This document shows positions 2,122 to 6,609 of a stretch of DNA of 40,846 nt, piece by piece. Both the position numbers and the translations under genes were made by a program. The notes beneath the pieces were generated by a model. It was not told the DNA's origin, did not search any database, and saw only the letters and a list, made by a program, of their open reading frames with translations. The stretch is from a virus. Lineage: Duplodnaviria; Heunggongvirae; Uroviricota; Caudoviricetes. The stretch lies in the IMG/VR virus record IMGVR_UViG_2630968414_000015. One strand, written 5' to 3'. Each line of letters starts with the position of its first letter. Within the stretch, counting starts at the first letter, position 1.

Positions 2122-2566
2122 ATTCTGTTACCGCTTTTTTCACTTCCACCACAATGCTGTCAATCAGCACCGGGTAAGTTGCATTTTTTGTGATATCCGT
2201 TACGCGGAGTTTGTCCACCGGGAAAGTTCCTACTGGTGACTGCGTCAGGGTAAACGCGGCACCATCCTGACCATCAATAACCGGAATAACCTGAAGGCTG
2301 TTATTTCCTGCAAAACGGAAGGCCAGCGTATGCCATTCATTATCAAATGCACCAAAGGTTCCCAGTTTCTGGTTATTTGTTGCCACTTTTGCATTGTGGT
2401 ACATCACATTCAGGTCTTTTGCGTCTGTCTGGATGTAGAACGATGCCAGCAGATTATTCCCTGCATCCCCTGTCAGGGTGACACCCTGCGGCAGAGAGGA
2501 AACCGGCCAGTAAAGCCCCATGACATACTGGTTTGCCACCAGGTCGCCAGGTACTTTAAAACGACA
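2120..2566 (-). pseudogene. C-terminal fragment (about 148 codons) of the IS-disrupted esterase-like gene
   Basis: Reading frame continues exactly across the IS66 insertion: ...LISCR | FKVPGDLVANQYV...; the first codons of the predicted ORF (MYAY) are IS-derived. Confidence 0.7.
2559..2566. repeat. Target-site duplication AAACGACA (left copy)
   Basis: Identical 8-bp direct repeat immediately flanks both IS ends (2559-2566 and 5009-5016). Confidence 0.85.
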
Positions 2567-2637
2567 GTAAGCGTACATCCTGAACCGTCTGGTCAGAATC
2601 TGACGAATTAGACAAAGTGGTGTCCACCAAATAAGTA

Positions 2638-3039
2638 GTGGGAACCAAAGTATCAGATATGCAGAAAAATGTGACTCCCGGCAGGCGAAAAGGCTGCCCT
2701 AATTATCCTCCCGAATTTAAACAGCAGCTCGTTGCTGCCTCCTGTGAACCCGGGATATCCATCTCAAAACTTGCTCTTGAAAATGGCATTAACGCCAATC
2801 TGTTGTTCAAATGGCGACAACAATGGCGCGAGGGAAAGCTGCTATTACCTTCTTCAGAGAGCCCCCAGCTACTTCCTGTGACTCTCGATGCAGCTGCCGA
2901 ACAGCCAGAATCGCTCGCAGAGGACCCGGAAACCCTCAGTATCAGCTGTGAGGTAACGTTCCGGCACGGGACGCTCCGCTTCAATGGCAATGTCAGCGAA
3001 AAGCTCCTGACTCTGCTGATACAGGAACTGAAGCGATGA
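2638..3039 (+). CDS. IS66 accessory protein Orf1 (TnpA-like)
   Basis: 133-aa ORF, first gene of the IS66 triad; stop overlaps the orf2 start (ATGA). Confidence 0.8.
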   Translation: MGTKVSDMQKNVTPGRRKGCPNYPPEFKQQLVAASCEPGISISKLALENGINANLLFKWRQQWREGKLLLPSSESPQLLPVTLDAAAEQPESLAEDPETLSISCEVTFRHGTLRFNGNVSEKLLTLLIQELKR

Positions 3040-3383
3040 TCCCGTTACCTTCCGGGACCAAAATTTGGCTGGTTGCCGGTATCACCGATATGAGAAATGG
3101 CTTCAACGGCCTGGCTGCGAAAGTACAAACGGCGCTGAAAGACGATCCCATGTCCGGCCATGTTTTCATTTTCCGGGGCCGCAGCGGCAGTCAGGTTAAA
3201 CTGCTGTGGTCCACCGGTGACGGACTGTGCCTCCTGACCAAACGGCTGGAGCGTGGGCGCTTCGCCTGGCCGTCAGCCCGTGATGGCAAAGTGTTCCTTA
3301 CGCAGGCGCAGCTGGCGATGCTGCTGGAAGGTATCGACTGGCGACAGCCTAAGCGGCTGCTGACCTCCCTGACCATGCTGTAA
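3036..3383 (+). CDS. IS66 Orf2 (TnpB-like)
   Basis: 115-aa ORF ([27 protein letters not shown]...) typical of IS66 orf2. Confidence 0.85.
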
Positions 3384-3432
3384 ATCTCTTTATCCTGGTT
3401 GTCACAGAATAAGCCCGGTAAAATACGGGCTT

Positions 3433-4971
3433 ATGAACGACATCTCTTCTGACGACATCTTCCTGCTGAAACAGCGCCTGGCCGAACAGGAAGCGCTGAT
3501 CCACGCCCTGCAGGAAAAGCTGAGCAACCGGGAGCGCGAAATAGACCATCTGCAGGCGCAGCTGGATAAACTCCGCCGGATGAACTTCGGCAGTCGTTCC
3601 GAAAAAGTCTCCCGCCGTATCGCACAAATGGAAGCCGATCTGAACCGGCTTCAGAAAGAGAGCGATACGCTGACTGGTAGGGTGTATGACCCGGCAGTAC
3701 AGCGTCCGTTGCGTCAGACCCGCACCCGTAAGCCGTTCCCTGAATCACTACCCCGTGACGAAAAGCGACTGTTGCCTGCGGCGCCGTGCTGCCCGAACTG
3801 CGGCGGTTCACTGAGCTATCTGGGCGAGGATACCGCCGAACAGCTGGAGTTGATGCGTAGCGCCTTCCGGGTTATCCGGACGGTACGGGAAAAACATGCC
3901 TGTACTCAGTGCGATGCCATCGTGCAGGCACCTGCACCTTCGCGGCCCATCGAGCGGGGTATCGCCGGACCGGGGCTGCTGGCCCGCGTGCTGACCTCGA
4001 AGTATGCAGAGCACACCCCGCTGTATCGCCAGTCAGAAATATACGGCCGGCAAGGTGTGGAGCTGAGGCGTTCACTGCTGTCGGGCTGGGTGGATGCATG
4101 CTGCCGGCTGCTGTCTCCGCTGGAAGAGGCGCTTCATGGCTATGTCATGACTGACGGCAAACTCCATGCCGATGATACCCCGGTCCAGGTACTGCTGCCG
4201 GGTAATAAGAAGACGAAGACCGGGCGGTTGTGGGCGTATGTTCGTGATGACCGCAATGCAGGGTCAGCGTTGGCACCTGCAGTGTGGTTCGCTTACAGCC
4301 CGGACAGAAAAGGCATCCATCCGCAGACTCATCTTGCCTGCTTCAGCGGTGTGCTGCAAGCGGATGCGTACGCCGGGTTCAACGAGCTGTATCGCAATGG
4401 TGGGATAACGGAAGCTGCCTGCTGGGCTCATGCCCGCCGAAAGATCCACGATGTGCACGTCCGCATCCCGTCAGCACTGACGGAAGAAGCCCTGGAGCAG
4501 ATCGGTCAGTTGTACGCCATAGAGGCGGATATAAGGGGAATGCCGGCAGAGCAGCGGCTTGCTGAACGTCAGCGAAAAACGAAACCGTTGTTGAAATCCC
4601 TGGAAAGCTGGTTGCGTGAAAAGATGAAGACCCTGTCGCGACACTCAGAGTTGGCGAAGGCGTTCGCGTACGCACTTAACCAGTGGCCGGCACTGACGTA
4701 CTATGCGAACGATGGCTGGGTGGAAATCGACAACAACATCGCTGAAAATGCCCTGCGGGCGGTCAGTCTGGGTCGTAAAAACTTCCTGTTCTTCGGCTCT
4801 GATCATGGTGGTGAGCGGGGAGCGCTACTGTACAGCCTGATCGGGACGTGCAAACTGAATGACGTGGATCCAGAAAGCTACCTTCGCCATGTGCTTGGCG
4901 TCATAGCAGACTGGCCGGTCAACCGGGTCAGCGAACTGCTTCCGTGGCGCATAGCACTGCCAGCTGAATAA
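3433..4971 (+). CDS. IS66-family transposase (TnpC)
   Basis: 512-aa ORF with N-terminal leucine-zipper-like region, a CxxC...CxxC zinc motif (CCPNCGG...CTQCD) and a DDE-type core, as in IS66 transposases. Confidence 0.9.
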
Positions 4972-5004
4972 CACATCCCCGTCAATACGGCCCTCGCTGT
5001 ACGC

Positions 5005-6609
5005 TTACAAACGACAACTGATTAAACCACCATTTTTCAGCAGTTCAGCACCAGTACCGGCATCATGATCCAGATACCAGGATGATTTACCTGTTTCCTT
5101 GGTCAGTTTCATTGCCTTACCACCTGTGCCTCCTGCATCACTGATAATTTCAGCTTTACCGCCAGCCGGCTCCCAGCCCTGGGCTTTCAGATTTCCTTCT
5201 GACTCACTGACACGATAAGACAGCAGTGTTGTGGTTACTGCTTCAGTTTCTGAAGGTGACGGCACTGGTGCTTCAGTTTCAGAAGATGGAACATCGGCTT
5301 TTACTGTGGTTCGCCCCGCATGAGTCAGAACTGCCGTGGCCAGACGGTCGGAAATAATCCCACGACGTGCCCATGAACTGAAATGGCTGGCCCGGTCCGC
5401 AGATGTCCAGGTGGCGGCACTGTTACGCCACGTTGAGCCGTAATAACCAATGGATTCAATATCCGGGTCTTCTGCCGGATTGTTGGTGGGTACATTCGCG
5501 TCATTTTCATCTGTCATTAATGGAACGAAATGAATGTTTTTATCTGTTTTGTTTTTGTAGCCGCCATAGATTGCCTGGTATGCCGGTTCATTTTTCTGTT
5601 TCCAGAAATACGTGGTATCGCCACAAATCCACGGAACGCCAGCAGCACTGCCACCGGTACACTGTTCCGCCTGTTCAGCCAGGTCTGCGCGGAATTTTTC
5701 CACCATCGCCAGAAACAGCGCGGAATGCTCCGTCGGCTTCGCATCAATATCAAACTCGCCCTGCATCCACACCACAGCAAGCAGGCGGTTTTTCGGGTTC
5801 TTCGCCAGTGCCGCTTTTGTCCGGCTGATTAAGTCCTTATACAGCGGCTTATCCACACCCCAGCGGGCTGAGTCCTCTGAAGCACCCGTGCTGTCACTGT
5901 ACGTGCCGTCAGCACCCGCCGTGAATGCAGAACCACCACGGCAGCAGGGAACCAGCAGAATCCCCGCATCTGCCGGAATAAACGGCAGCAGTTTTTTGGC
6001 AATGTGAAGCCCCTGACCCACGGTGCCATATTGCCCTTTAGCCACATCCGCTTTCGGGTGATTTTTTCCACTCATATCCTGCACATCATGCAGACAGTGG
6101 TCGGCCAGAATGATGTCGTTATACTGACAGGCTTTACCTCCCGGCGTGACTGTACTGCGACGGGCTAACTGCATAATACGCGGTTCGGGGCGGTCATATG
6201 TCTCCGGCAGTGGCAGACCTTCACCGTAAGCCATACCGTTTGACTGACCAGCAAGAACCACCACGTAATACCTGGAAGGGGAGCTGGAAGCAGTTTCATT
6301 TCCTGACGGACGGGTATGTGTTTCAGCATTATCCCAGTCTGACGGTTCAGCAGTACCGGCAACATCAGCACTTAACGGAATGACCGCACCAATACCCGCT
6401 CCGGTAATTTCCACACTCGGATCACCGGATACTGGCCTTACCCACAGGCAATCCTGTGTATTAAAACTGATGAGACAGTCAGCAAATGTCATTCCTCCTT
6501 TCGTTTCAGCAGGAGGAAAGGGAGCCTCAAGAAATGCCGCTGTACCACCGGAAACTTTAACGGTAAAGTTTCCGGGCATTGATGATAGTTGAACCCATTT
6601 GGACGTCAT
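5005..6609 (-). pseudogene. N-terminal 533 codons of a putative SGNH/SASA-family carbohydrate esterase (NanS-p-like), truncated by IS66
   Basis: Motif VVVLAGQSNGMAYGEG resembles the GQSN(M) serine block of sialate O-acetylesterase (SASA) family proteins; Ser/Thr/Pro/Glu linker (ETEAPVPSPSETEAVTTT) before a C-terminal domain; the last codon and stop are supplied by the IS end. Confidence 0.45.
5009..5016. repeat. Target-site duplication AAACGACA (right copy)
   Basis: See left copy. Confidence 0.85.

Follow-up and report, generated by a model that had tools for sequence, protein, structure and literature searches.

An ISEc8 insertion in a NanS-p-type esterase gene of a Mu-like prophage carried by Escherichia coli O157:H7 strain C1-057

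We analysed a 40,846-nucleotide stretch of viral DNA (Caudoviricetes; IMG/VR record IMGVR_UViG_2630968414_000015; "the window" below means this whole stretch) and found that its best explanation, to which we assign a probability of about 0.95, is that a complete copy of ISEc8, an insertion sequence (IS) of the IS66 family, inserted by transposition at codon 534 of a gene for a sialate O-acetylesterase of the NanS-p type. The gene is a homologue of ECs_4993 and belongs to an Sp18-type Mu-like prophage, in which it lies between the gin-like invertase gene and com/mom. The 8-bp target AAACGACA was cut with a stagger and then repaired to give a flanking duplication, and the antisense ISEc8, through its terminal GTAAGCG, supplies a TAA codon one codon beyond the junction. 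The gene is thereby split into a predicted 534-residue product and an orphaned 3' piece of 146 codons.

Junctions and empty sites of the insertion

The initial annotation had placed a 2442-bp element with terminal inverted repeats at 2567-5008, between two copies of a direct repeat, and we arrived at the same coordinates both by reading the sequence and by script (Table 1). That 8 bp should agree by chance at two positions which are set by the ends of an independently defined element has a probability of 4^-8, or ~1.5e-5. Upon deletion of 2567-5016, i.e., of the element together with one repeat copy, a minus-strand open reading frame (ORF) of 2040 nt was restored (window 6609..2120; 679 codons plus stop) that reads across the junction as ...GGLISCRFKVPGDLVANQYVMG..., in agreement with the frame of about 680 codons and the junction reading that had been predicted. 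When both repeat copies were kept, the script returned a broken reading frame. The earlier wording that the element was "inserted in frame" did not hold, as the IS plus the duplication amounts to 2450 nt, which is not a multiple of three (2450 mod 3 = 2), and the IS genes run antisense to the target gene, which is truncated.

IS-free alleles of the gene were found in abundance. We searched 5,426 complete E. coli genomes, the set that underlies all genome counts given here, with a 600-bp query spanning the restored junction, and found it uninterrupted and 100% identical in numerous E. coli genomes of the Shiga-toxin type (O157:H7, O26, O103, O145). In strain Sakai, this match is ECs_4993, which lies within "prophage Sp18, Mu-like phage". 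The full restored gene aligned in one piece and collinearly with intact 2040-nt alleles at 99.7-99.8% identity, with 143 records giving a best match of at least 99%, and 2 amino acids separate the restored protein from ECs_4993. The comparison with related prophages that the initial annotation had proposed hence turned up the expected uninterrupted alleles, and the repeat sequence is present in them as a single copy.

The occupied site, by contrast with these many empty ones, was confined to a single genome. Queries spanning the left and the right IS/flank junction each matched 1 of the 5,426 genomes, that of O157:H7 strain C1-057 (NZ_CP035366.1), a finished chromosome with which the window agrees at 100% over the 8.8 kb compared. 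RefSeq presents the locus there as a "sialate O-acetylesterase" pseudogene, the ISEc8 tnpA, tnpB and transposase genes, and a "DUF6645" pseudogene, in that order. C1-057 is a feedlot (cattle) isolate and is stx-negative (PMC4777751, PMC8046923); the genome papers on this strain make no mention of the insertion, ISEc8, IS66, a Mu-like phage or an esterase.

Collinearity with Sp18 extends on either side of the element to the limits of the window, which spans the prophage from the stop codon of mom up to the end on the repressor side: positions 1-2566 match Sp18 at 100% and positions 5005-40846 at 99.85%, in one piece each. In C1-057, the prophage in turn interrupts the DUF4132 gene adjoining yehI, and the host flanks, when rejoined with one CGAA copy kept, are 100% identical to empty sites across 401 bp. 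The elements are thus neatly nested, with ISEc8 inside a transposable prophage that itself sits inside a host gene.

Table 1. Positions in the window of the ISEc8 element, its genes and ends, the duplicated target and the two pieces of the interrupted gene.
Feature	Position	Strand	Basis and remarks
Complete ISEc8 (IS66 family), 2442 bp	2567..5008	+	Full-length identity to annotated copies; same ends in independent copies
Left terminal inverted repeat	2567..2577	+	Perfect core GTAAGCGTACA; imperfect match continues to ~2592
Right terminal inverted repeat	4998..5008	-	Reverse complement of GTAAGCGTACA; source of the TAA that closes the upstream gene fragment
tnpA, helix-turn-helix accessory protein, 126 aa	2659..3039	+	Pfam HTH_Tnp_1, E = 1.8e-12; RefSeq WP_001171554.1 at the same position in C1-057
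tnpB, IS66 Orf2-like accessory protein, 115 aa	3036..3383	+	Pfam TnpB_IS66, E = 1.2e-38; RefSeq WP_000612591.1
tnpC, DDE transposase, 512 aa	3433..4971	+	RefSeq "ISEc8 family transposase" WP_000998048.1
Duplicated 8-bp target left of the IS, AAACGACA	2559..2566		Sequence reading and script; single copy in the empty-site allele
Duplicated 8-bp target right of the IS, AAACGACA	5009..5016		Sequence reading and script
5' gene fragment	5005..6609	-	533 native codons plus Leu and stop from the IS; ORF, Pfam SASA, C1-057 pseudogene
3' gene fragment, residues 534-679, rest of the lectin-like jelly-roll	2120..2566	-	Pfam DUF6645, E = 9.5e-68; C1-057 pseudogene

Anatomy and identity of the element

The assignment to the IS66 family, close to ISEc8, was borne out by the set of genes recognised by Pfam and by identity: all 2442 bp are 100% identical to copies in O157:H7 chromosomes and on the plasmid pO157 that RefSeq, through the Prokaryotic Genome Annotation Pipeline (PGAP), labels "IS66-like element ISEc8 family transposase", and the name ISEc8 is taken from these labels of identical copies. 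In line with the initial view that the three IS ORFs are intact, the products of tnpA, tnpB and tnpC share their RefSeq protein accessions with ISEc8 copies elsewhere. The transposase TnpC matches PF03050 (DDE_Tnp_IS66) with E = 2.1e-106 over profile positions 1-283 of 284, and additionally contains the zf-IS66, LZ_Tnp_IS66 and DDE_Tnp_IS66_C modules of Pfam. For tnpA, the ORF delimited mechanically begins at a GTG at 2638, whereas its 126 residues are counted from the ATG at 2659. The stop codon of tnpA and the start codon of tnpB share the ATGA at 3036-3039 (overlap sequence GCGATGATCC); a tnpA-tnpB-tnpC organisation with such an overlap between the first two genes is reportedly a criterion of the IS66 family (Han et al. 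2001).

The termini start with GTAAGCG, which is of the IS66-family type, and the inverted repeat is perfect over 11/11 positions and imperfect thereafter, with 19/26 matching overall. The 11-mer GTAAGCGTACA has only two occurrences in the window, even when one mismatch is allowed. As the chance expectation is ~0.27 and at least two matches were found in 3 of 100 shuffles, this count by itself is weak evidence for the element ends; stronger evidence comes from the fact that the sequence enclosed by the exact inverted copies agrees with ISEc8 at 100% identity.

Independent copies fixed the boundaries further. Six fetched ISEc8 copies with identical ends represent five distinct sites, and each of these five is flanked by a perfect 8-bp duplication, the sequences being unrelated: AAACAAAA in bglG, AAATAACC at yfbM, GCACAGGC in fimD, GTTAAACC on pO157 and AGTGATTG between ykgM and ykgR. 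The same ends at five independent sites thus fix where the element begins and stops, and also establish the family's 8-bp rule for ISEc8, consistent with the 8-bp target duplication reported for IS66 (PMC6778807) and for IS66-family elements of Paracoccus (PMC3281130). Among the six 8-bp duplications, including that of the window, we found no target consensus beyond their being rather A-rich. Extra flank bases that could be aligned at the IS junctions were considered as a sign of target specificity and were rejected, as they are attributable to chance or A-richness. Judged from the DNA, the features that define the family and that we tested, namely the transposase, gene order, ends, duplication and identity, were all found in the element.

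ISEc8 is both widespread and repeated, with matches in 4,231 of the 5,426 genomes and ~10-16 matching places per O157 chromosome. Copies at 100% identity occur in other contexts, including pO157, fimD and the ykgM-ykgR interval, and the identical copies that we fetched came from O157-type isolates of cattle and humans. At IS position 12 (window 2576-2578), these fetched 100%-identical copies carry a T, which on the opposite strand creates an outward-reading ATG; two ISEc8 variants at other sites (99.9% identity) carry a G at this position, which makes the inverted repeat 12/12 and leaves a CTG instead of the ATG. PGAP sometimes takes start codons inside the IS end for hybrid coding sequences of downstream gene fragments, as for fimD and yfbM.

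The interrupted gene and its prophage

The restored protein has an esterase core (PF03629, SASA) that matches NanS (YjhS; PDB 3PT5) over residues 104-428 with E = 7e-118, followed by a C-terminal domain that matches PDB 6YP6 "NanS-p" over restored residues 459-674 with E of about 1e-111. Across the esterase core and the jelly-roll, it is 74-78% identical to the NanS-p proteins of Shiga toxin (Stx) phages. The N-terminal region is different. NanS-p typically has an N-terminal DUF1737 domain (PMC10462455), which in gp84 of phage phi24B is reported to be capsid-binding (bioRxiv 10.64898/2026.04.10.717836, a 2026 preprint). Pfam gave no DUF1737 match in the restored protein, where alignments to Stx-phage NanS-p begin only at residue 65-106, and residues 1-103 showed weak PHROG matches only, leaving an unrelated N-terminus of ~64-100 residues. 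By its domain content, the target is thus a paralogue of NanS-p whose N-terminus differs, and does not have the canonical three domains. An esterase activity on Neu5,9Ac2 would be expected by homology. Within the gene, 5 of the 6 nucleotide differences from Sakai fall in window 6300-6609, which encodes residues 1 to ~100.

The NanS-p of phi24B, vb_24B_21/gp84, shares with the restored protein the esterase core, the lectin-like jelly-roll C-terminal domain, whose structure is PDB 6YP6, and four aromatic residues, while its N-terminal DUF1737 has no counterpart in the unrelated N-terminus found here. These four aromatic residues, Y510, Y515, Y540 and F611 of vb_24B_21, were proposed to bind carbohydrate (PMC10462455), and their counterparts Y545, Y550, Y575 and F646 are conserved in our protein.

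The IS breaks the gene after Arg533, inside the C-terminal lectin-like domain. On the gene strand, the duplicated octamer TGT CGT TT followed by the GTAAGCG of the IS reads TTG TAA, such that the product would end in ...SCR-L-stop. The predicted 534-residue protein retains the unique N-terminal region, the whole esterase core and ~75 of the roughly 217 jelly-roll residues at the start of that domain; Y545, Y550, Y575 and F646 are all encoded downstream of the break. Chromosomal NanS works without such a C-terminal domain, and the half beta-sandwich that is left here may destabilise the truncated esterase. As for the orphaned 3' piece, the ATG in the left end of the IS (2578-2576) opens an in-frame ORF (MYAY-CRFKVPG...). 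A scan for sigma-70 promoters that could read outward into this DUF6645 fragment found none on the minus strand near 2567-2700, with overall matches below the shuffled expectation, and hence lent no support to expression of the 3' fragment from the left end of the IS. Loss of the gene is probably near-neutral, given that O157 genomes contain several nanS-p paralogues: matches to the restored gene occupied a median of 3 places per genome and up to 10, and several active NanS-p esterases per strain have been reported (PMC8065619).

The surroundings of the gene confirmed its description as prophage cargo. It is located between the gin-like invertase gene (6709-7269, minus strand) and the DUF1378/DUF826 pair, after which com and mom follow. 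The defining traits of the Mu-like type, i.e., MuA/MuB genes, a gin-like invertase with an invertible tail-fibre segment, and com/mom at the right end, are present in Sakai Sp18 and its sister prophages, and Sp18 is considered intact (PMC2669165). In the genomes of Stx phages, ORFs for DUF826 and DUF1378 occupy the interval from nanS-p to S, the holin gene (PMC10462455); as this pair accompanies nanS-p there as well, "cargo gene" is a fair label. The esterase, DUF1378 and DUF826 genes stand together between gin and com/mom (window 1510-1973 and 2120-6609, minus strand), which, together with the arrangement in lambdoid Stx phages, suggests an accessory module that has moved between unrelated phage types.

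Prophages of the Sp18 type occupy many different chromosomal sites, and that of C1-057 was found in this strain only. Outside the window, their ends are identical (TGTAACCAGG...CGCCGCGCTATA) in four independent insertions, those of Sakai, Z887, 12089 and C1-057, which are flanked by direct repeats of only 4 bp (TAAA, AGAA, CGAA and CGAA). Mu makes 5-bp duplications and ends in ...CA, and by comparison the 4-bp duplication and ...TA right end of the Sp18 type look atypical. The Sakai record annotates the Sp18 boundary as though the repeat were an imperfect 5-mer.

Elsewhere in the window, several differences from the otherwise nearly identical Sakai Sp18 were seen. At 20194-20264, the hexanucleotide CGGCTT forms a perfect tandem array of 11.8 units within the homologue of ECs_4975, which is HI1506-related or a "DNA processing protein" gene. 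The array has three units (18 bp) more than in Sakai, and the gene measures 369, 387 or 399 nt among the sister prophages, indicating an in-frame variable-number repeat. Compared with Sakai, there is also an indel of one base at 7338, immediately before the gene for the gin-like invertase; it falls in a small ORF that PGAP calls frameshifted in C1-057 and that is intact in sister prophages. About 24 substitutions and small indels are clustered at 34248-35157, among small ORFs of the early region, suggesting a recombination patch. ARAGORN found no tRNA in the whole window; in sister prophages, PGAP annotates a "tRNA-OTHER" beside the gene for phage head morphogenesis.

Timing, alternative explanations and known parallels

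The initial annotation had argued for a recent insertion, and our genome comparisons point the same way. The duplication is perfect, the IS shows no differences from copies resident in O157 genomes, the flanks equal those of empty-site alleles, and both junctions are limited to one genome; from these observations we infer that the event was recent and specific to the C1-057 lineage. This copy of ISEc8 is probably still transposition-competent, as far as its genes and ends allow such a prediction. Nine ISEc8 copies each were reported in Sakai and FRIK804, with eight sites common to both (PMC7430833), and such site differences between O157 strains are consistent with a low but real activity of the element.

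None of our observations speaks against the insertion as such, but three points weigh against the reading of a recent transposition in C1-057 of an element that is still mobile. None of the complete genomes holds an IS-free allele that is exactly identical over the whole gene (the best reaching 99.8%), and none has a prophage at the same chromosomal site without the IS. Furthermore, intact ORFs and ends are needed for mobility, yet are not sufficient for it. As there is no identical parental allele and the prophage site recurs in no other genome, the host in which the IS jumped cannot be fixed.

This leaves room for the alternative that fares best, namely that ISEc8 entered the phage genome at an earlier time, in another host, and was brought into C1-057 by the infecting Mu-like phage, in which case no transposition would have taken place in this strain. 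Since the prophage site in the DUF4132 gene is as unique to C1-057 as the insertion, there is no IS-free prophage at that place by which the two events could be ordered, and ISEc8 is widespread in E. coli. We nevertheless consider an earlier host unlikely, though not negligibly so: the IS does not differ at any base from those that reside in O157:H7 chromosomes and on pO157, none of the many other Sp18-type prophages has the insertion, and an extra 2.45 kb would, if packaging resembles that of Mu, tend to leave the right end out of the particles and make transmission improbable. Mu packages its DNA by headful. By this analogy, combined with the identity to resident O157 copies, insertion after lysogeny seems more likely than before it.

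Taken one step further, the same analogy implies that 2.45 kb added ~2.5 kb from the right end may exceed the capacity of the capsid and yield particles without the right end, such that an otherwise intact prophage would be grounded in C1-057, a consequence that we regard as rather doubtful. In a weaker variant of this idea, the split may leave an esterase that is active but has lost its lectin domain, or an ORF for the lectin domain that starts from the ATG at the IS end.

An assembly artefact, in which a repeat-induced misjoin put an ISEc8 copy into the esterase gene, deserved attention, as ISEc8 is multi-copy and repeats are a classical cause of misassembly. A misjoin, however, would not make a perfect 8-bp duplication whose removal restores a known allele base for base. 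Both flanks are moreover contiguous parts of one gene and the chromosome is finished, which makes this explanation very improbable. A larger rearrangement (a composite transposon, deletion or inversion) of which the IS would form one arm has next to no likelihood: although deletions can arise by recombination at copies of IS66-family elements, an exchange between two such copies would leave flanks that do not match (PMC6778807), whereas here the 8-bp repeats match on both sides and both flanks are perfectly collinear with Sp18.

Transposition of ISEc8 into the prophage gene, the explanation that we favour, has close parallels. The ISEc8 copies in Sakai/EDL933-type O157:H7 genomes and on pO157 have the same 2442 bp, proteins, ends and 8-bp duplication, and differ only in the insertion site. 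Uninterrupted, the same gene is ECs_4993 of Sp18 in Sakai, with the order invertase, esterase, DUF1378, DUF826, com and mom; the site of insertion is sorM for Sp18 in Sakai and the DUF4132 gene by yehI for the prophage of C1-057. IS interruption of the nanS-p gene of Stx2a phages has been published, mostly for IS629/IS1203 "CTR3" alleles, and phage F451 has an ISEc8-like IS within or next to nanS-p (PMC10462455); in phage PA33, we noted a split nanS-p gene with mobile-element proteins. In those cases likewise, an IS breaks a prophage NanS-p gene and alters or removes its C-terminal region. Unlike them, the present insertion affects a Mu-like transposable prophage instead of a lambdoid Stx phage, a paralogue without DUF1737, and a strain that is stx-negative.

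Overall, this is a real, recent and strain-specific insertion of a known element, ordinary in kind and at a locus already annotated in RefSeq; ISEc8 and its family features, the NanS-p family, Sp18 and ECs_4993 were all already known. Beyond a strain-level record, its significance is small: it adds one more lineage-specific ISEc8 site, which is potentially a typing marker for the C1-057 lineage, and it provides an example of the inactivation of one among several redundant nanS-p-type esterase genes.

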